A stretch of DNA of 45,074 nucleotides from a virus. Lineage: Duplodnaviria > Heunggongvirae > Uroviricota > Caudoviricetes. The notes under the pieces were generated by a model that saw only the letters and a program-made list of their open reading frames with translations, was not told where the DNA came from and made no database searches. This document shows positions 5,464 to 20,751 of this stretch, in pieces. The stretch's first letter is position 1, and each line of letters opens with the position of its first letter. The stretch covers positions 1 to 45,074 of IMG/VR virus record IMGVR_UViG_2908567220_000008; one strand, written 5' to 3'. Made by a program: the position numbers and the translations under genes.

Positions 5464-6435
5464 TCAGTAACTGATACCGGTATGGGGAATGCGGCCGTCT
5501 TTAACCGCTGTAAGCACCTCGATAGCCTGATCCCGAGTAAGGCTGGTATTGGCCAGAAGAGCTTTGACGATTTCAGTGCCTACAGCCTTGCGGTGCTTAA
5601 CGTCGGCTTCGCGGCGAGCCTGCTCATCGGCTTTACGTTTCTCCTCAGCCAGGCGGGCCTGTTCGCGTTGCTCTGCCTCGCGGCGGATGCGATCGGCTTC
5701 TTCCTGAGCTTTGCGGCGCTCCGCTTCGATAGCGGCCTGCTTGTCAGCCTCAGCTTTCTTCTCGGCTGCAATGCGATCTCGCTCTGCCTGCTCAGCTTGT
5801 GCTTTCAACACAGCTTCGCGATGCGCCGCTTCTTCACGTTCACGCTGTGCGCGCTGCTCAACTTCTCGGGCTGCTGCGGCGGCTGCCATTCGCTTAATTT
5901 CTTCTTCATGGGCAATGCGCTGGCGCTCAGCCTCAGCTGCTTTATCTGCCTGCTCTCGGTCGAAAGCGTCATTCATCAGCATGGCCATTTCGTGGTCAGA
6001 CTCAATCCGAGCTGCCAGCTGCCGATCGAACTCTTCATTCATGGCCAGTGCTTCGACGTGAAGGGCGTTCATGGCTTCTTCGGCCTTAATGCGTTCCTGC
6101 TCCGCCTCCCATTCGGTCAACGGGCGACGCACTTCATCTTTCAGTGCATCGAGACGCTCACGGACAACGCGGCGGCTTTCATCAATCTGCTTTGGCAGCG
6201 CCTTCAGCTCAGCGACCAGGGCTTTACCTGCGTTGTCGATGTAGGTTTTAGAGCGCGCGACCTTGTGAGCCATGGATGCGATAGCATCGCGGCCTTTTTT
6301 GGTGGTCACGTCCGGCACCAGACTGCGAGCCTCTTTTTCGATCGCTTCGATAAGCGGATCGAGTTGGTCGTTATTGGTGAAAACCGCCATCGCGTTCTTT
6401 TTCTCGATGACGACTAAATCCATTATTTCGCTCAT
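5464..6435 (-). CDS. Hypothetical coiled-coil protein, Ala/Glu/Arg-rich
   Basis: 323 aa; central about 150 residues are low-complexity charged repeats (AEAERQRIAHEEEIKRMAAAAAARE...). Confidence 0.6.
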   Translation of the reverse strand: MSEIMDLVVIEKKNAMAVFTNNDQLDPLIEAIEKEARSLVPDVTTKKGRDAIASMAHKVARSKTYIDNAGKALVAELKALPKQIDESRRVVRERLDALKDEVRRPLTEWEAEQERIKAEEAMNALHVEALAMNEEFDRQLAARIESDHEMAMLMNDAFDREQADKAAEAERQRIAHEEEIKRMAAAAAAREVEQRAQREREEAAHREAVLKAQAEQAERDRIAAEKKAEADKQAAIEAERRKAQEEADRIRREAEQREQARLAEEKRKADEQARREADVKHRKAVGTEIVKALLANTSLTRDQAIEVLTAVKDGRIPHTGISY

Positions 6436-6522
6436 GGTTTCCCCTGAAATTTGGTTGTAAGAATCCCGGCACCGTATTGGCTGCCTGATAGCTCAGTTAA
6501 ATTCGTGCGCTGATATGCGCGG

Positions 6523-6717
6523 TTAATGCGTCCCGGCTGGAACCAGATTCGGCAGCAGGTCGCGTGCCTCAAATGCTTTGCGAATGTGGCGCAGGTTGCC
6601 CTGTGGCTCGAACCAGAAGGTTTCTTTCAGGTAGTCACGTGAAACCTTCCAGGTGGCGCCAGTTTTAGCGTTACGCATCATCACGGCGCGTCCGCTGTTA
6701 GGAATTGAGTTAGCCAT
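6523..6717 (-). CDS. Hypothetical protein
   Basis: ORF-track frame 6523..6753; start taken at the ATG at 6717 (MANSIPNSG...). Confidence 0.45.
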   Translation of the reverse strand: MANSIPNSGRAVMMRNAKTGATWKVSRDYLKETFWFEPQGNLRHIRKAFEARDLLPNLVPAGTH

Positions 6718-6820
6718 TGAACACCCCCGTAACGTGCAGAATTTTGATAACAACAGCCGACCAGATAACGCCGCAGATCAGCAGGCAGTAAATCAGTGAA
6801 CGAATGCCTTGTTTGCTCAT
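6710..6820 (-). CDS. Small hydrophobic peptide (36 aa), putative membrane protein
   Basis: Hand-translated MSKQGIRSLIYCLLICGVIWSAVVIKILHVTGVFNG; one predicted TM helix. Its ATG overlaps the stop of the upstream small ORF. Confidence 0.4.
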   Translation of the reverse strand: MSKQGIRSLIYCLLICGVIWSAVVIKILHVTGVFNG

Positions 6821-6924
6821 TTGCCACCCCAGCACGGATAGCTAACTGCGAGAACAGCAACCAAAAACGGAACGACCTTTAACCAAAAATTACGCCATGC
6901 AGGCTTGTCTTCTTCGCGGATCAT
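6817..6924 (-). CDS. Small hydrophobic peptide (35 aa), putative membrane protein; first gene of the leftward operon
   Basis: Hand-translated MIREEDKPAWRNFWLKVVPFLVAVLAVSYPCWGGK; strong SD (aaggtgaagag) ahead of the ATG. Confidence 0.4.
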   Translation of the reverse strand: MIREEDKPAWRNFWLKVVPFLVAVLAVSYPCWGGK

Positions 6925-7006
6925 CTCTTCACCTTTGCCTTATCGCGGCTAACGGGACGTTTTGACTTCACCCCGGCGTTGCCGGTGTTGTTTGGATGAG
7001 ATGATA

Positions 7007-7082
7007 ATAGCAATGAGTATTAACCATAGCAATACGTATTGTTATTATTTGATAGCTATTGCTATTAAATCATTGATAGCTA
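7007..7082. promoter_or_regulatory. Operator-like repeat cluster (putative OL-type operator and promoter region)
   Basis: ATAGCAAT at 7007 and 7026; near-palindrome ATAGCAATACGTATTGTTAT at 7026-7045; ATAGCTATTGCTATTA at 7052-7067; TTGATAGCTA at 7073-7082. The same ATTGCTATTA core recurs between cI and cro. Confidence 0.4.
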
Positions 7083-7144
7083 AATGAATTTATTTTTTCC
7101 TATTGTGCTGTTATGCTCAAAAAAACGCCAAAAAGGGTAGCGCC

Positions 7145-7348
7145 ATGTCGAATGAGGATGAGTTTTTCGCAGAGATGCACCCGCAGATTGCGCAGGTCAT
7201 CGGGATAGCGGTTATGCAGCTGCTGGTTGAGAGGCGCGAGCCATCAAGAGAGGCGCTGATAGAGATGATTCAGGTGTTGTGGCAGGGTGACCAGGTAGAT
7301 CTGGCAGTAGAGCTGGCACTGGATGTGCTGATGCTGCGGGAAGAGTAG
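7145..7348 (+). CDS. Hypothetical small protein (67 aa)
   Basis: ATG at 7145 (MSNEDEFFAEMHPQ...), in the same frame as the longer track ORF 7103..7348. Plus-strand gene convergent with the kinase module. Confidence 0.5.
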   Translation: MSNEDEFFAEMHPQIAQVIGIAVMQLLVERREPSREALIEMIQVLWQGDQVDLAVELALDVLMLREE

Positions 7349-7354
7349 GGCAGT

Positions 7355-7377
7355 AAAAACCCGGCGCGGTGGCCGGG
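7355..7377 (-). terminator. Intrinsic terminator for the kinase/DUF3037 transcription unit
   Basis: GC hairpin cccggc-gcggtg-gccggg (7360-7377) followed on the minus strand by a U-run (plus-strand aaaaa, 7355-7359), 17 nt past the stop at 7394. Confidence 0.55.
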
Positions 7378-7393
7378 TGCTGGCAACAGTTTG

Positions 7394-8212
7394 TTAGTTA
7401 AAATTAAGGCTTTTCCCGGCAGCGACTAACATATGATCGTAGTATTTAGACATATCTTCGCTACTTAGCAAGTTGAAGACATTGTCAGCATAACCTCCAA
7501 CCAAGTTAAGTTGCTGAGAGTGCGCTTTTTCCTGAGGTGTATCAGCAGCATAAACCACAAAAGTCTTCACGCAGTTATTCCACTTGGTCTTAGCTGCGTT
7601 TATTGTCACAGCTTTAAACGCTGACTCACCCATTTTTTGGCGATTATTGGAAATCCGTAGATCTAAGGTTTCAGTTAAATGATAAATTCCATTTTTTAGT
7701 AAAAGTTCAGCATAAAGACCTTCAGATTCAGAAAGCGGATACCCCTGAACCACTTTATGCTCGCTAATTTCCTTGAGATTCTTACCCATAACTCCTTCTT
7801 TTTCAAACCTATCCTTAAGCTCGGTAATAATTCTTTTTTGAGAAACTTCAGTTCTTTTCTTCGCTCGCTCAGGTGTTATGAATAATTTATTTAATTCATT
7901 GATTTTTAATTCATATTCACGTTCATTGGCAGCATGAAATGTACCTACGCTTGACAAGGCAAAGCTACCTTGGAAAAAGAGAGAAGCCTGTTCGATGCTT
8001 AAGCCAGAAGTTAAAATAGTCTCCAGTTGCTTCTGGCTATTTTCTAATGCTTCAAGCCCAAAATCATTTGTAATAGCTTTTAGTTTAGTAGGGGTTTCTA
8101 TGACGCGCACATCTGGGCCAGATGGCTTCATGACGACAAGGCCAACGTTGATTGTCTCGGCGCGGACAGGGTTCGGTGTTATTCTGACAATACTGTATTT
8201 ATATGTATTCAT
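7394..8212 (-). CDS. DUF3037-like protein (272 aa), partner of the HipA-like kinase
   Basis: N-terminus YSIVRITPNPVRAETINVGLVVM resembles the DUF3037 family (from memory, needs HMM confirmation). ATG overlaps the kinase stop (ATGA). Visibly AT-rich. Confidence 0.6.
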   Translation of the reverse strand: MNTYKYSIVRITPNPVRAETINVGLVVMKPSGPDVRVIETPTKLKAITNDFGLEALENSQKQLETILTSGLSIEQASLFFQGSFALSSVGTFHAANEREYELKINELNKLFITPERAKKRTEVSQKRIITELKDRFEKEGVMGKNLKEISEHKVVQGYPLSESEGLYAELLLKNGIYHLTETLDLRISNNRQKMGESAFKAVTINAAKTKWNNCVKTFVVYAADTPQEKAHSQQLNLVGGYADNVFNLLSSEDMSKYYDHMLVAAGKSLNFN

Positions 8213-9033
8213 TTCAGCACCTCCCCTCTAACAGTGTCGATTCGTTTCATTCTGCCGTCGCTTGACCACCAGGTTAGCAGAGCATCCCTCTGCAAAGGAT
8301 TGATCCATGCTTCCGGCATGTCTTCAAAAATCCGTTCTATCGTGCTAGAGCTAATTCTGGATAGCTTATCCAATACAGCTTCCGCAGGCGCTTTACACGA
8401 AACATCATTATATGTCAACTGCTTGATCGCTTGCCAGCAGTTTGTGGTGTTGTAGCCCATTGGTATTAGGGCTGCGTCGGTTTTGTTCGGCCAACCCATA
8501 ACCATAGCTGCAAGGCTGAAATCGAAGGCTTGGATAGTCAGGTTTCCATATCGGTTCTTAGTGTACAGATAGTTACCAATATGCCTATCAATATTAAATA
8601 CGAACTGATCGAAGGCGTAAACTGACCATACTTGCTTCCGTAGAATAGAAGGTCCGGACATCAATTCAGCGGCAAAGTTAATTTCTTCTTGTGGCTTACT
8701 CATGGCAGCCAGGTCATATTTTGATCCAAAAAAGTGCTCTCCTGTATCCGGGTCAATCAAAACCCTACAGGCCGGGGTAGGAAGCCCACTAAATTCAGCA
8801 AGTTTAGTACATAGCCATTCTGATGCTGGAATTTGCTTTGGGTGGGGAATCCCTGTCAAAGCGGATGCATCACCATCAGAAACCCCTTTTATTGCATACT
8901 CTAAACCGTCGGAGGCCATAACTGTATGCCTTAGGTGAGCTGTGCCCATTGCTGGCTTATAATCCACAATCTCAAGACTAAACAAGGGTTCTTGAATAGT
9001 AATGTTCTTTTCAGGTTGTGAGTCTTCTTCCAT
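8209..9033 (-). CDS. HipA-like / CtkA-like atypical kinase-fold protein (274 aa)
   Basis: FNIDRHIGNYLY matches the N-x-D-x-H-x-x-N catalytic-loop pattern of HipA-family kinases (E. coli HipA has D-x-H-x-K-N). AT-rich coding sequence. Confidence 0.6.
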   Translation of the reverse strand: MEEDSQPEKNITIQEPLFSLEIVDYKPAMGTAHLRHTVMASDGLEYAIKGVSDGDASALTGIPHPKQIPASEWLCTKLAEFSGLPTPACRVLIDPDTGEHFFGSKYDLAAMSKPQEEINFAAELMSGPSILRKQVWSVYAFDQFVFNIDRHIGNYLYTKNRYGNLTIQAFDFSLAAMVMGWPNKTDAALIPMGYNTTNCWQAIKQLTYNDVSCKAPAEAVLDKLSRISSSTIERIFEDMPEAWINPLQRDALLTWWSSDGRMKRIDTVRGEVLK

Positions 9034-9143
9034 TTTTATTCCACTAATTGATTAGTGATAGATTCCACCGGGTACTTCATTGCTGCTCTGAACTTAAGCT
9101 TTATTGCCCTTCTGGGCGGCGAGGAACCGCGAAGCGCTCTTAT

Positions 9144-9169
9144 CCATGCTTCCTGTACGTCTTCGGCAT
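9144..9169. repeat. Direct repeat copy 1: duplicated 3' end of the cI gene
   Basis: ccatgcttcctgtacgtcttcggcat matches 9347-9372 at 25 of 26 positions; on the minus strand it reads MPKTYRKHG-stop, the same as the CI C-terminus. Confidence 0.7.
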
Positions 9170-9200
9170 TACCAAAAACACATCGAACTACCGGTCTGGC

Positions 9201-9320
9201 TCACTCAAAGTCATCCCGCTCATCCTTCCGCTTGAAGAAAACTTTATCCAGCCTGAGCACTATCCCAACCAGTCCGATAATCAGCAAAGTAATGAGTATT
9301 GGGATAATCAGATCAGACAT
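9201..9320 (-). CDS. Small membrane peptide (39 aa) immediately downstream of cI
   Basis: Hand-translated MSDLIIPILITLLIIGLVGIVLRLDKVFFKRKDERDDFE; SD gaggaag ahead of the ATG; flanked by the 26-bp direct repeats. Confidence 0.45.
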   Translation of the reverse strand: MSDLIIPILITLLIIGLVGIVLRLDKVFFKRKDERDDFE

Positions 9321-9342
9321 GCTTCCTCTGCGTGCTAAGGCT

Positions 9343-10041
9343 TTACCCATGCTTCCTGTACGTCTGCGGCATGCTGCCGATCACCTTGCCGAACACGAAA
9401 ACACGATTCATTTCGTCTTTCTCGATCGGGTCCCAGGCTGCATAGCTCTTGTTATCTGAGATAACCAGCAGCTTGTCCTTCATCTTCTGCAGGCGCTTGA
9501 CGTGAGCAGTGTCGTCGTACAGGAAGGCGTATATCCCGTCGCCGTCGAAGCTCTTAACGCTGATGTCGACGAACAGCAGATCACCCGGCTCAATCGTGCC
9601 GGACATGCTGTCACCCCGGACGTTGATGATCCGGATGTTCTCAGCCTTACGCCCATCGAACATGTGCCGGGCTTCAGCTGGCTCATACTCAACAGAACGG
9701 AGAATCTCGACGAACTCCTGGTTCACGATGCCCGGCCCGGCACTAACCATAAGGTCCAGCACATCAATCCTGAATGCATCAGTATCCTGGCTTTTAACCT
9801 GGGCAGCGCGAGGGAGCTGGCCGTCATCGCGCATCGGTCCATTTCCGGTTGATAACCATTCAGACCTGACGCCCAAAGCATTAGCTATCTCGACAATTTT
9901 TGTTGAACCCCTGGCGTTTCCACTCACCAGGCGCCAAATGGTTGGCTGAGCAATACCTGAGGCCTTCGCAAGCGCCCCTTGTGACATTCCAGCCGAAGCC
10001 ATGGCCTCGTTTAAACGATCTGCAAGAGTTTCTTTTTTCAT
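9343..10041 (-). CDS. cI: CI-type phage repressor (HTH_XRE plus S24 LexA-like autopeptidase)
   Basis: N-terminal HTH (MSQGALAKASGIAQPTIWRLVSG) and C-terminal S24 signature (VRGDSMSGTIEPGDLLFVD ... VKRL). Start taken at the ATG at 10041; the track ORF begins at a TTG at 10104. Confidence 0.85.
   Translation of the reverse strand: MKKETLADRLNEAMASAGMSQGALAKASGIAQPTIWRLVSGNARGSTKIVEIANALGVRSEWLSTGNGPMRDDGQLPRAAQVKSQDTDAFRIDVLDLMVSAGPGIVNQEFVEILRSVEYEPAEARHMFDGRKAENIRIINVRGDSMSGTIEPGDLLFVDISVKSFDGDGIYAFLYDDTAHVKRLQKMKDKLLVISDNKSYAAWDPIEKDEMNRVFVFGKVIGSMPQTYRKHG
9347..9372. repeat. Direct repeat copy 2 (authentic 3' end of cI)
   Basis: ccatgcttcctgtacgtctgcggcat, encoding the last residues of CI (MPQTYRKHG). 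Confidence 0.7.
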
Positions 10042-10152
10042 AATCTCAAATTTATACGCTTGCGTATTACTGGTCAAAACACGTTTTGCTATTGCTAAAA
10101 CCAATACGCATTGCTATTATCATTTTGCACCAATACTTATAGGAATTGGAAC
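10042..10152. promoter_or_regulatory. Divergent cI/cro operator-promoter region (OR-like)
   Basis: Intergenic region between divergent cI and cro containing GCTATTGCTA (10088-10097) and ATTGCTATTA (10110-10119) next to CAATACG. Confidence 0.5.
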
Positions 10153-10380
10153 ATGACGAACAAAACCATCCAGAAGGCAATTGATATCGCTGGCAGTCAG
10201 AAAAAATTGGCCGATCTGTGTGGCGTAGCGCAGCCGACAGTTTGGCGCTGGCTGCATGGCGGCGGAATTGACGCTCGCTATGTAATGAAAATCGTGTCTG
10301 CGACCAACGGCAAGATTAAGGCGGCAGAGATCAGGCCTGACCTTGCTCAGTTGCTGAGCGCGCATTCACCGGCCGCCTAA
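10153..10380 (+). CDS. cro: Cro-like HTH regulator
   Basis: 75 aa from the ATG at 10153; HTH QKKLADLCGVAQPTVWRWLHG; divergent from cI. Confidence 0.75.
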   Translation: MTNKTIQKAIDIAGSQKKLADLCGVAQPTVWRWLHGGGIDARYVMKIVSATNGKIKAAEIRPDLAQLLSAHSPAA

Positions 10381-10420
10381 CCAGCGGCCATTCCAAACAA
10401 CACCAGAGGAAGTATCACAA

Positions 10421-10642
10421 ATGGAGAGTTCAACGACACGCAACAAAGTGGAGGCTCGCAGGATAGAAAGCTGGTTACACAGCCAGATAGCTGAACTGGG
10501 AACCACGAATATCGCCAAAGTGGCCGGAGTGAATAAGTCGACGGTGAGTCGCTGGCGGGAAAGTCTGCTGCCGAACATGTCGCTGCTGCTGGCCATCCTG
10601 ATTTCTAACAGGCCGGGAGAGAAAGGTGATTTTGAAGCATGA
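10421..10642 (+). CDS. cII: CII-like transcriptional activator
   Basis: 73 aa; alignable by eye to lambda CII (RIESWLHSQIAELGTTNIAKVAGVNKSTVSRWRESLLPNMSLLLAIL versus lambda ALRIESALLNKIAMLGTEKTAEAVGVDKSQISRWKRDWIPKFSMLLAVL). Confidence 0.8.
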   Translation: MESSTTRNKVEARRIESWLHSQIAELGTTNIAKVAGVNKSTVSRWRESLLPNMSLLLAILISNRPGEKGDFEA

Positions 10643-10727
10643 GTGGGAACAGAAAGGCGAAAGCCGCAGTGCAGCAACACTAACGGCTTTCTACGCGAAT
10701 TAACTGGATCAATTCACAGGAGTAATT

Positions 10728-11582
10728 ATGGCAAATACTGCCGAGGTAATCAATTTCCCTGTGCCTGTCGTGGCACTACAGGAGCTGCGCGTGGCAGATC
10801 TCGACGATGGGTTTACGCGCATCGCCAATGAGCTCCTTGAAGCTGTCATGCGTGCGGGTCTGTCGCAGCATCAGCTTTTGGTGTTCATGGCTGTCATGCG
10901 CAAAACATACGGCTTCAACAAGAAATCTGACTGGGTCAGTAACGAGCAGCTCTCGGAGCTGACCGGCATTCTCCCGCATAAGTGCTCAGCTGCAAAAAGC
11001 GTCCTGGTTAAGCGGGGGATATTAACTCAAACCGGTCGTGTTATCGGGATTAATAAAACGGTCAGCGAATGGTCATCTTTACCCGTAAAAGGTAAAGAAA
11101 AAAAACCTTACCTGAAAAAGGTAACATTACCCGAATCAGGTAAGAAAAGTTTACCCGAATCAGGTAACGCCTATTACCCGAATCAGGTAAACACAAAAGA
11201 CAAACATACAAAAGACAATAAAGACAATATTAATAACCCCCCTAAATCCCCCCGGGCGGTTTCGTTCGATGCGTTAGCTGTTCAGTTGCCTGACTGGCTT
11301 TCTGCAGAAATCTGGTCGTCATGGGTGGCATATCGTCGCGACCTGAAAAAGCCGATCAAGTCTCAGCAGACGGTCACCCAGGCTATCAACCTGCTGGACC
11401 GCTGCAGACTGAACGGTTACGCGCCCGAAGAAATTATCAACCGCAGCATCGCCAATGGCTGGCAAGGCCTGTTTGAGCCAAATGGTGCCAAGCCTCAACC
11501 AAGTCAACAGGTGCGAGTTGCCGAAAATTTCGCAGGGAAGGATTACGGGCAGACTGAAATCCCATCATGGGCGAGGGACTGA
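10728..11582 (+). CDS. Replication initiator (lambda O-like) with embedded origin
   Basis: 284 aa; N-terminal DNA-binding region; iterons lie inside the coding sequence; followed by a DnaC-like loader. Confidence 0.8.
   Translation: MANTAEVINFPVPVVALQELRVADLDDGFTRIANELLEAVMRAGLSQHQLLVFMAVMRKTYGFNKKSDWVSNEQLSELTGILPHKCSAAKSVLVKRGILTQTGRVIGINKTVSEWSSLPVKGKEKKPYLKKVTLPESGKKSLPESGNAYYPNQVNTKDKHTKDNKDNINNPPKSPRAVSFDALAVQLPDWLSAEIWSSWVAYRRDLKKPIKSQQTVTQAINLLDRCRLNGYAPEEIINRSIANGWQGLFEPNGAKPQPSQQVRVAENFAGKDYGQTEIPSWARD
11088..11240. repeat. Origin iterons plus adjacent A-rich tract (ori-lambda-like)
   Basis: Three exact TTACCCGAATCAGGTAA copies (11127-11143, 11151-11167, 11174-11190) and two degenerate copies upstream, spaced about 20-24 bp, followed by an A-rich tract. 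Confidence 0.65.
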
Positions 11583-16846: not shown

Positions 16847-16935
16847 ATACGTCATATTTGAGTCTACTTTGATATGCTGCCTTAACTTTAAGTGGCGGCA
16901 TGAAGATGATAGTCATATACCAGTTTGTAAAATTA

Positions 16936-16962
16936 GCCTCGGCAATCCGCCGGGGCTTTTTT
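16936..16962 (+). terminator. Intrinsic terminator (tR'-like) downstream of Q
   Basis: Stem gcctcggc / gccggggc (one mismatch), loop aatcc, then tttttt. Confidence 0.5.
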
Positions 16963-17407: not shown

Positions 17408-17434
17408 GCCCGCCCCTCTGAGCGGGCTTTTTTT
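17408..17434 (+). terminator. Intrinsic terminator upstream of the tRNA pair
   Basis: Stem gcccgc / gcgggc with an 8-nt loop, followed by ttttttt. Confidence 0.5.
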
Positions 17435-17499
17435 CGCCTAATTCAGGCAAAACCATAAAGCATTAAGGGCTGCGCTATTTCGCGGCCTTTTTCATTTCA

Positions 17500-19301: not shown

Positions 19302-19901
19302 TTACAGAACCCACCACCTGATCGAATCTGTGGGTATGGTTGCAGCCTCGACATTCTGGATCATACCCAACTCGGTGGCCCTTCCCGGATCAATGATGGT
19401 TGCAGAAGTGATCAAATTAGCCCAGTCAATTTGCTCATCTGGGGCTACAGCGAGAGCCTCGATATTCATCACCTGCACAAATCTTTGCAAGTCGTCATCC
19501 AGACATGCCGCCCATTCCCTAAGCCTGAGGTGATCTGCTTGTGGGGCGGCAAATCCCCAATGTAAAGGATGTAATAAAAATCGCGAGAGAGGATTAGCAA
19601 ACCGCTCAGATCCAGCCATGAAAATAACATTTGCTATAGATTCCACGTTACTAAGGTTATGTGTCTTCACCTTTACAGGAAGAGACTTAAGAAAGTTGTA
19701 TGCGGTAAAACCTGCAACGGTATCTCCACCTTTACTAGAGATGTAAATCCTGATCTCAGAGGCTGGTTGGTTAGGGCTTGATATCGCTTTGAGGCAAACA
19801 TCCATAAGGCTGGATACAGAAGCAACTGTTACATCTGTCATGAAGTGTACGGTATGGATCATTTCAGTTTCCCAGAGATATGCCGCAATTGGCATTTTCA
19901 T
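19302..19901 (-). CDS. Stand-alone Clp-fold serine protease (ClpP-like, SDH-type) moron
   Basis: Alignable by eye to ClpP: IRIYISSKGGDT (ClpP LYINSPGG), FMAGSERF (ClpP AASMGA, Ser), LLHPLHWG (ClpP IHQPLG, His), Asp in DHLRLRE. Start uncertain (ATGs at 19910/19901/19895; the track TTG is at 20018). AT-rich; opposite strand to neighbours. Confidence 0.7.
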   Translation of the reverse strand: MKMPIAAYLWETEMIHTVHFMTDVTVASVSSLMDVCLKAISSPNQPASEIRIYISSKGGDTVAGFTAYNFLKSLPVKVKTHNLSNVESIANVIFMAGSERFANPLSRFLLHPLHWGFAAPQADHLRLREWAACLDDDLQRFVQVMNIEALAVAPDEQIDWANLITSATIIDPGRATELGMIQNVEAATIPTDSIRWWVL

Positions 19902-20011
19902 AATGCACATAAAGTGAAAGGTTTTCTGCGTAAACCCGGATGAAATAATTTCATGAAGTAAGGCATTACAGAGCCACTTCCAGAGGTGGCTCGATAATGT
20001 TGGAGGAAACC

Positions 20012-20650
20012 ATGTCAACGCTTAAGGATTTATCCCGGCAGCTAAAGCAGCTGCAGAAGCAAATCCCTTTCGCCACGGCGCAAGCCATGACATCGGTAGT
20101 AAGGGATATCGCCGCAGCGCAAAAGGTGGCACTGGGGCGAAAACTGGAATCGCCGACGCCGTTCACCGTCAACTCAGTGGGCTCTGCTGGCGCCAGAAAG
20201 AACAACCTCCGCGCAAAAGTCTTTGTGCGCGATGTCGCCGCTGAATATCTCGAACCCTTTGAATTTGGTGGTGAACATAAACTGAACAGCCAGGCGCTGC
20301 TCAATCCAAAGAACATCAAACTGAACAAATACGGCAACATGCCGCGAAATAAGCTGTCGCAGTTGAAAGCGAAGCCGAATGTGTTCGTAGGTGAGGTCAA
20401 TGGTGTTGATGCTGTCTGGCAGAGGCGTAAACCGAAGAAGGCGAAAAAGAAACGAGCCCGGCGCTCAGCGAATGGTACGCGCAGACCAAAGCGGAAACAG
20501 CGTGCTCCTAAGCTGCTGGTGAGGTTTGGTGATGCTCTACCTGTTACGCCTACGCTTGACTACATGAACCGCTCACGGTCAATGGCAGCCGGCTTAATGC
20601 CCGGCGCGCTGAGTAGGGCGATTGAGGAAGCGATTCGAACAGCAAAATGA
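20012..20650 (+). CDS. Hypothetical basic protein (213 aa)
   Basis: Start at ATG 20012 (MSTLKDL...); contains a Lys/Arg-rich stretch KPKKAKKKRARRSANGTRRPKRKQR; lies just upstream of the cos-like repeats. Confidence 0.5.
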   Translation: MSTLKDLSRQLKQLQKQIPFATAQAMTSVVRDIAAAQKVALGRKLESPTPFTVNSVGSAGARKNNLRAKVFVRDVAAEYLEPFEFGGEHKLNSQALLNPKNIKLNKYGNMPRNKLSQLKAKPNVFVGEVNGVDAVWQRRKPKKAKKKRARRSANGTRRPKRKQRAPKLLVRFGDALPVTPTLDYMNRSRSMAAGLMPGALSRAIEEAIRTAK

Positions 20651-20751
20651 CCTGAATACCTACCCCATAGGGTTTGGGTCCTTCCTGAGACTTTTGTAAG
20701 GCACGGGCATTGCGCGCCGCAGTGTTTTCCTAGCTACAAACTTTTATTTTG

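Follow-up and report, generated by a model that had tools for sequence, protein, structure and literature searches.

The window analyzed here, the whole of positions 1 to 45,074 (45,074 nucleotides [nt]) of IMG/VR virus record IMGVR_UViG_2908567220_000008, is filled by a lambdoid prophage whose leftward early operon opens with two micro-open reading frames, ORF1 and ORF2. We conclude that these ORFs very probably encode real, translated membrane peptides that head the operon of the predicted leftward promoter, pL. Both are kept, with their lengths, their hydrophobic character, and their junctions, in a large group of related prophages. Judged by gene order, they and a third coupled gene take the place that the N...cIII-kil segment has in classical lambdoid phages. 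The features discussed below are collected in Table 1.

The first-pass annotation of this DNA had described two micro-ORFs of 35 and 36 amino acids (aa) joined by an ATGA overlap, and this is read directly from the sequence and the list of ORFs: the ATGA at 6820-6817 is common to the end of ORF1 and the start of ORF2. A third coupled gene, ORF3, was absent from that annotation; it overlaps ORF2 by 8 nt (ATGGCTAA). The Shine-Dalgarno (SD) sequences pair with the 16S rRNA 3' end at -7.4 kcal/mol for ORF1 (AAGGTGA, 6935-6929), -6.9 kcal/mol for ORF2, and -9.9 kcal/mol for ORF3, ranking among the best 5%, 7%, and 1.3%, respectively, of the 1613 ATGs in the window. The word "strong," which had been applied to the SD of the pair, is justified for ORF1, and ORF3 merits it most. 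The best 19-residue Kyte-Doolittle (KD) window scores 1.79 in ORF1 and 2.42 in ORF2. A score of at least 1.7 is reached by 12 of the 186 ATG-initiated ORFs of 30 to 60 aa in the window, and ORF1 and ORF2 have the strongest SD pairing among those 12 (the next is -5.9 kcal/mol). Lysine and arginine are concentrated N-terminally in both peptides, which suggests an orientation with the N-terminus inside.

Automated annotation treated the pair unevenly. PGAP left ORF1 uncalled and called ORF2 as a 41-aa protein from GTG 6835; ATG 6820 is the conserved start among relatives, and the phages GZ7 and Mulock annotate ORF1 as well as ORF2. Neither peptide had a match above threshold in Pfam, PHROGs, NCBIfam, or PADLOC. 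A database search with padded or extended queries returned close relatives only, named "hypothetical" or "membrane protein," and a literature search found no paper on these peptides. The family is thus uncharacterized and partly in databases already under such names.

Conservation was assessed in two samples, one anchored on ORF3 (80 viral loci and one Raoultella locus) and one anchored on an alternative third gene, a kil gene (80 viral loci); both sets together are referred to as the 160 related loci. ORF2, 36 aa long in all 82 distinct DNA versions, was found in every one of the 80 Kil-type loci (79 by pattern, plus L155, a one-residue variant) and in 79 of the 80 ORF3-type sequences. Of the 80 Kil-type loci, 79 carry ORF1, whose length is 35, 36, or 38 aa; among the 80 ORF3-type sequences that were examined, all except roughly one carry it, and in 67 it is ATGA coupled to ORF2. 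One class of ORF3-type loci was first scored as being without ORF1; the examined loci of this class have ORF1 after the leader and an extra gene before ORF2. The complete layout of leader, ORF1, ORF2, and third gene is exact in 69/80 Kil-type loci and kept in 67/80 ORF3-type sequences, and the 8-nt overlap between ORF2 and the third gene is invariant in 160/160 loci, whichever third gene is present. Conservation of the reading frames in related phages had been set beforehand as a check, and the frames are clearly kept in the 160 loci. This rules out ORF1 and ORF2 as chance ORFs.

The sequences of the peptides vary within narrow limits. ORF1 follows the pattern MIRE...W10..F13..S28..C31-W-G, and ORF2 follows MS[KR]xGIRSL...W20...H29..GVFNG. 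Invariant residues whose codons vary synonymously are R3, A9, F13, V17, L21, and S28 in ORF1 and R7, L9, and F34 in ORF2; A22, I27, and H29 of ORF2 are predominant, likewise with synonymous codon variation. Anchor residues that are invariant or nearly so are W20 in ORF2 and W10, F13, S28, and C31 in ORF1. In all protein variants (more than 80), the best KD window is at least 1.7 for ORF1 and at least 2.0 for ORF2, and the other five frames stay below 1.45. The earlier prediction of one hydrophobic helix in each micro-ORF is upheld.

Pooled ratios of nonsynonymous to synonymous polymorphism (pN/pS) were 0.46 to 0.50 for ORF1 and 0.28 for ORF3. The pooled ratio is uninformative for ORF2, and therefore frame-specific hydropathy and a test of replacement type were used. 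The latter compares changes in the helix core to polar or charged residues, proline, or stop with the expectation from random single-base changes. Such changes made up 4 of 55 distinct replacements in the ORF2 core (34% expected, P = 2.7e-6) and 2 of 28 in the ORF1 core (33% expected, P = 0.0014). We take both ORFs to be genuine proteins because the layout is near invariant, the lengths are fixed, the hydrophobicity is confined to these frames, and polar replacements are avoided. Selection on the two acts chiefly to maintain a fixed-length hydrophobic helix and a few anchor residues.

Three results speak against the functional reading preferred below. The pooled pN/pS of ORF2 is 0.8 to 0.9. 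Conservation has no helix-face periodicity in ORF2 (P = 0.70) and a marginal one in ORF1 (P = 0.07). The C termini, CWGG in ORF1 and TGVFNG in ORF2, coincide with the SD and start codon of the following gene, so conservation there may act at the RNA level. The first and third of these results bear on the possibility that the peptides are incidental and that the pair is a translated leader, which would deliver ribosomes to the third gene, cover the 5' end of the pL transcript, and shield an operon without N from Rho-dependent polarity. The phage has no recognizable N, translation would begin about 70 nt into the transcript, successive cistrons overlap with no gap between them, and Rho might load at the G-free, C/A-rich 13-mer of the leader; the double duty of the C termini and an ORF2 pN/pS near 1 fit the same picture. 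A leader role alone requires none of the kept hydrophobicity, the avoidance of polar residues, the fixed lengths, or the anchor residues. Hydrophobicity is present in all of the more than 80 variants in these frames only, polar replacements are avoided far beyond mutational expectation, and the lengths are fixed, as are or nearly are W20 of ORF2 and W10, F13, S28, and C31 of ORF1, several of them with synonymous variation. We therefore regard a purely incidental role as improbable.

The pair's position at the head of the leftward early operon, as claimed in the first-pass annotation, is confirmed for this window by the mirrored arrangement of its control regions. A promoter scan found a promoter-like site upstream of ORF1, and the 34-nt block around it (7001-7034) is 82% complementary, as an inverted copy, to the block at the rightward promoter, pR (10090-10123). 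Repeats of the ATAGCAAT type in the adjacent operator region, oL, recur in the cI-cro intergenic region. The site and the shared repeats thus mark the predicted pL/oL, which mirror pR/oR, and ORF1 starts about 70 nt downstream of the predicted pL transcript start. The prophage was found integrated adjoining yecE in Escherichia coli ES2 (100% match), and its relatives are mostly temperate Klebsiella phages. The pair is present in about 350 viral contigs and in 63 of 5426 complete E. coli genomes; carriers are Klebsiella, Raoultella, and E. coli prophages, many of them from clinical Klebsiella pneumoniae.

Much of what surrounds the pair is exchangeable. Among relatives, at least eight unrelated promoter/operator (immunity) sets lie upstream of ORF1, and all of them converge on one leader exactly at the predicted transcript start. 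Several relatives have an HK022-type pL, with similarity to HK022 ending at the -10 element. In some relatives, the leader and ORF1 are separated by inserted genes (for pentapeptide-repeat proteins or a 209-aa protein, or several small ORFs); in others, an inserted gene whose product ends ...ADAMLKAREEV separates ORF1 from ORF2. These insertions preserve the 4-nt overlaps. ORF1-ORF2 is the constant element within an insertion-prone region and is usually, not always, first in the operon; the statement that it comes first holds in the window and fails in relatives with genes inserted before ORF1. As a separate observation, a pentapeptide-repeat protein of 218 to 498 aa is the product of the first pL gene in L057-L063 and L025, and its length shifts by 20-residue steps (378, 398, 438, and 498 aa) among otherwise near-identical phages, which looks like rapid repeat expansion and contraction.

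The third gene is exchangeable as well. In GZ7 and Mulock, the place of ORF3 at the 8-nt junction with ORF2 is taken by another gene, which encodes 68 aa. Its product falls in phrog_294 ("Kil protein for bacterial septation inhibition"; E = 5e-34) and shares 37% identity with phi80 Kil. The phi80-type Kil, which carries annotation as an FtsZ inhibitor, was found in 255 stretches of the viral collection and ORF3 in 93, so that about three quarters have Kil. A "cell division inhibitor" label for ORF3 was rejected because it belongs to the phi80-type Kil of GZ7 and Mulock, a different gene. Comparison of the ORF3 family with GZ7 Kil gave an hhalign probability of 0.3%, and ORF3 matches phrog_3722 only. 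An exhaustive profile search with ORF3 returned a narrow family plus weak, multi-stretch matches to long proteins, and its AlphaFold model is beta-rich and of low confidence (pLDDT 58.5). By these comparisons, ORF3 is a nonhomologous occupant of the slot that Kil fills elsewhere.

The whole window was searched in six frames with lambda N, HK022 Nun, lambda and HK022 CIII and Kil, and GZ7 Kil as queries. With phmmer, lambda N and HK022 Nun gave noise only (best E = 0.98), arginine-rich windows in the six frames fell in noncoding frames only, and Pfam, PHROGs, NCBIfam, and PGAP named no N in the window. The earlier remark that no N-like antiterminator is evident agrees with all three results: no search hit, no arginine-rich motif in a real gene, and no family or annotation match. 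Lambda and HK022 CIII, compared by blastp and phmmer with ORF1 to ORF3 and with the six-frame ORFs of the window, also gave noise (E ≥ 0.04). The Kil queries likewise gave noise only in the six frames, and no homology of ORF1, ORF2, or ORF3 to the lambda-type or phi80-type Kil was found.

These data suggest a model for the pair. Upon infection or induction, ribosomes would load at the ORF1 SD, about 70 nt from the start of the pL transcript, and would pass by termination-reinitiation through the ATGA into ORF2 and then through the 8-nt junction into the third gene. Because the junctions couple ORF1, ORF2, and the third gene, all three products should be made together and early. The peptides would be the first products after derepression and would insert into the inner membrane, with the N-terminus probably inside. 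There they probably act on a host membrane machine and are not incidental. The preferred target would be the FtsH-HflKC protease; as a nonhomologous transmembrane counterpart of CIII, the pair would tune the lysis-lysogeny decision and early host physiology. We put forward the CIII-like, FtsH-directed role tentatively, on the strength of position and the missing CIII. The full combination, in which a transmembrane CIII replacement controls CII stability and lysogeny via FtsH-HflKC in an N-free lineage and the G-free TCCAAACAACACC at the nutL/nutR-equivalent positions points to an undescribed, N-independent control of early elongation, is unlikely to hold in its entirety.

The argument from position runs as follows. 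The first-pass annotation had put the pair where lambda places N. As a position, first after pL, this stands; the cIII-kil cassette is the better comparison. cIII overlaps the start of kil in lambda, HK022, and Sf6, and in the annotated records among the tblastn CIII matches listed, CIII lies over the annotated kil there too. ORF2 holds this cIII position because in roughly three of four relatives it is coupled to a kil gene of the phi80 type. ORF2 thus lies in the pL operon of a phage that encodes CII and overlaps the Kil slot in every one of the 160 loci, as expected by position for the CIII family. CII of the window is of the lambda type, with 48% identity to lambda CII over residues 1 to 60. 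Window-type CII occurs in 21 Klebsiella phage records, and none of 26 HK022-type CIII records is from a Klebsiella phage; for lambda-type CIII (360 records), Klebsiella is absent among the ten organism names listed, with nine rarer names beyond these. Kobiler et al. described CIII as a membrane-associated amphipathic helix and a competitive inhibitor of membrane-bound FtsH, and they considered that CIII-like functional analogues of other primary sequence may exist (PMC1838920).

Several points speak against the CIII-like role. The defining feature of CIII is a conserved, charged amphipathic alpha-helix (lambda residues 14 to 37) that is able to oligomerize (PMC1838920); ORF1 and ORF2 are uniformly hydrophobic, with transmembrane character. 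No sequence similarity of ORF1 or ORF2 to CIII was found, and there are two peptides here versus a single CIII. At 73 aa, CII of the window is 24 aa shorter than lambda CII. The FtsH degradation tag of lambda CII is C-terminal, and such a tag is not evidently present in CII of the window because the match stops at residue 60. Finally, cIII and kil overlap without sharing a function, so position is weak evidence.

Nearly as likely as the CIII-like role, and accordingly doubtful in itself, is that the peptides are membrane partners of a division-inhibition module, which anchor, target, or potentiate Kil or ORF3 or themselves block a late divisome protein. The coupling of ORF2 to the third gene at the 8-nt junction, without exception in the 160 loci, and the FtsZ-inhibitor annotation of the phi80-type Kil both suggest such a module. 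Small transmembrane division inhibitors are known in Caulobacter SidA and SPO1 gp56, and the Qin dicB-ydfD pair sets a division inhibitor beside a small membrane toxin. Yet the pair is unchanged with two unrelated third genes (hhalign 0.3%), so that a specific physical partnership is not parsimonious, and lambda cIII and kil overlap without a functional link. Allelic variation bears on a partnership in both directions: ORF1 class d and ORF2 class C occur together in 10 of 11 cases, as partners might, but this is the exception, the remaining allele classes reassort mostly freely, and ORF1 and ORF2 tolerate the insertion of a gene between them.

An in-frame fusion of ORF1 and ORF2 bears on the same question. 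The fusion allele, P0116, encodes 71 aa with two hydrophobic segments; it is present in 36 index blocks and at least 24 contigs, including loci L170 and L171 (GCA_046468375.1 and GCA_902508715.1). The fusion suggests that the two peptides can function as a single unit, in favor of a division-inhibition module. It was caused by one extra G in the G8 run at the ATGA junction, a homopolymer that could make the junction prone to slippage, and it looks like a single lineage-level event. As a Rosetta-stone argument the fusion is weak for this reason, and it would also invert the expected topology of ORF2.

The first-pass annotation had proposed host-killing or exclusion factors. On such a reading, the peptides would be stand-alone membrane toxins or exclusion/antidefense factors that depolarize or permeabilize the inner membrane or block the entry of competing phage DNA during lytic growth. 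The peptides resemble small membrane toxins in size and in having a single hydrophobic helix, they would be expressed first after derepression, their hydrophobic yet sequence-variable cores would suit a lipid-acting factor or an anchor of low specificity, and the surrounding region takes up accessory genes. Against this, the pair is near universal in the 160 loci amid the turnover of those accessory genes and looks like a core function, no PADLOC defense model was matched, no type I-like antisense promoter was predicted inside the ORFs, and early killing of the host is costly for a phage. Classical superinfection exclusion, which acts in lysogens, is unlikely because pL shares the pR operators and should be repressed there, so the genes should be silent. 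We consider stand-alone toxicity or exclusion unlikely and continue to favor the CIII-like role.

Two further assignments were rejected. A type I toxin of the Hok/TisB/Ldr kind does not fit ORFs that are internal operon cistrons with ordinary SD sequences, and 6700-6930 contains no plus-strand promoter-like site; Rfam families of toxin/antitoxin RNAs had no match in 6400-10900. A holin was ruled out because both ORFs lie in the early-left operon and the holin, lysozyme, and lysis genes of the phage lie at about 19470-20750.

Table 1. Features of the early-left operon and its control regions (strand: -, leftward; +, rightward;., not assigned to a strand)
Feature	Positions	Strand	Description
ORF1	6924..6817	-	ATG start, 35 aa, MIREEDKPAWRNFWLKVVPFLVAVLAVSYPCWGGK, stop TGA; predicted single-pass membrane micro-protein
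ORF2	6820..6710	-	ATG start, 36 aa, MSKQGIRSLIYCLLICGVIWSAVVIKILHVTGVFNG, stop TAA; predicted single-pass membrane micro-protein
ORF3	6717..6523	-	64-aa basic protein, phrog_3722 (function unknown), coupled to ORF2, in the Kil slot
pL promoter (predicted)	7032..7004	-	TTGCTA, 17-nt spacer, TG-extended TATTAT; promoter scan
pR promoter (predicted)	10092..10120	+	mirror partner of pL
oL operator region (predicted)	7001..7067	.	ATAGCAAT-type half-sites, e.g., palindrome 7026-7045
pL 5' leader	6997..6925	-	about 72 nt; ends in the ORF1 SD; near identical behind at least eight immunity types
13-mer TCCAAACAACACC, leftward copy	6984..6996	-	about 5 nt past the pL start
13-mer TCCAAACAACACC, rightward copy	10392..10404	+	12 nt past the cro stop, before the cII start
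agt/mog homolog	5464..6435	-	323-aa charged coiled-coil protein; phrog_1376; tblastn to phi80 agt and Sf6 gene 33

The leader itself (Table 1) had no Rfam match, a fold z-score of 0, and no covariation. It contains one copy of the 13-mer TCCAAACAACACC, which (as its 12-mer core) occurs exactly twice in the 45 kb, both times along the direction of transcription, and is G-free and C/A-rich. Both copies are conserved across immunity types, the right copy in 8 relatives with several cro 3' ends, and the two bracket the exchangeable immunity region. In lambda, nutL and nutR lie at the corresponding positions. The 13-mer is unlike the boxA consensus, and the hairpins beside the two copies differ in sequence and side, with no common boxB-type hairpin and no covariation. 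Candidate roles for it are those of a rut-like site, a factor-binding site, and a mere recombination boundary. An HK022-type put RNA was rejected for the leader: by eye it has no likeness to putL or putR, and the left and right sites share 13 nt only, whereas in HK022 similar put RNAs, each about 70 nt long with two stem-loops, follow both pL and pR.

Terminators were predicted in the same analysis. No intrinsic terminator was predicted on the coding strand of the left operon. On the plus strand, a hairpin in the leader at 6973-6985 (CCGGCGTTGCCGG then TGTTGTTTGG) is terminator-like for transcription antisense to ORF1 to ORF3, towards pL. Strong intrinsic-terminator candidates on the plus strand lie at 16935-16957, 17408-17427, and 17465-17490 in the ninG-ylcG-Q region, before or at Q; the first of these combines a T-run with a 9-bp stem in which 7 pairs are GC, and several candidates lie inside annotated coding sequences.

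Downstream, ORF3 is adjoined by the agt/mog homolog, labeled hypothetical by PGAP, and then by gamL-bet-exo. The annotation of phi80 Agt/Mog is "anti-toxin for Gam." Upstream of pL, the interval between it and cI (9343-10041) contains a HipA-like/DUF3037 gene pair together with one small gene on the plus strand, in a position comparable to that of the lambda rex genes. The pair consists of overlapping minus-strand genes for a DUF3037 protein and a HipA-like kinase (7394-8212 and 8209-9033) and has a weak PADLOC match to the candidate defense system PDC-M66 (B, E = 6e-7; A, E = 0.002).

Directly 3' of cI lies a small hydrophobic ORF without annotation (9201-9350, minus strand). From its likely start, ATG 9320, it would encode 39 aa (MSDLIIPILITLLIIGLVGIVLRLDKVFFKRKDERDDFE) with a best KD window of 3.14; AGAGGAAG precedes this ATG and was read by eye, unscored, as a likely SD site. 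Because its position is one expressed in lysogens, this ORF is a better exclusion-type candidate than ORF1 or ORF2. It is flanked by a 30-nt direct repeat (9140-9169 and 9343-9372, 93% identical) that duplicates the 3' end of cI and looks like the scar of a gene insertion.

Small phage membrane proteins are routinely overlooked in annotation, as when PGAP skipped ORF1 and gave ORF2 a nonconserved start. In a large group of prophages of Klebsiella, Raoultella, and E. coli that have CII, the Kil slot, and Q and no recognizable N or CIII, few features of the early-left operon are as constant as ORF1-ORF2. The role of the first two early proteins would show how the lysis-lysogeny decision and host takeover proceed without two textbook lambda regulators, and it might yield a new peptide directed at FtsH, the divisome, or a similar host membrane machine. 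The finding would be an ordinary one should the peptides prove to be no more than membrane anchors or mildly toxic.

Comparison with known systems places the pair as follows. In phi80, the early-left operon reads pL-nutL-N-tL1-orf44-kil-orf41-agt-gamL-rec-exo and is collinear with the window from agt through gamL, bet, and exo. phi80 has nutL, N, and tL1, whereas the window is without that block, and phi80 orf44-kil-orf41 is replaced in the window by ORF1-ORF2-ORF3; phi80 orf44 is not hydrophobic. Lambda N is basic and disordered; ORF1 and ORF2, in contrast, are hydrophobic, with neither homology to N nor an arginine-rich motif. The Kil proteins of lambda and of the phi80/phrog_294 type are likewise products of small host-takeover genes of the early pL operon, but they are soluble, whereas ORF1 and ORF2 are predicted membrane peptides. 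CIII of lambda, HK022, and P22 (44 to 54 aa), an FtsH inhibitor, is also a small early pL protein, its gene is immediately promoter proximal to kil, and the phages that carry it encode CII, as the window phage does. Beyond phages of this kind, small transmembrane regulators and toxins include MgtR, MgtS, and MgtU, which act on FtsH substrates, SidA and SPO1 gp56 at the divisome, the Hok and TisB toxins, and Qin YdfD. Such peptides are about 30 to 70 aa long, have one transmembrane helix, and target the bilayer or a larger machine from within the membrane. ORF1 and ORF2 differ from them in having no antisense RNA context and in being set at the head of a lambdoid pL operon. On present comparisons, the pair fits best among the small early membrane proteins known from phages, and it occupies the cIII position of a cIII/kil-like cassette in a lambdoid lineage without N.

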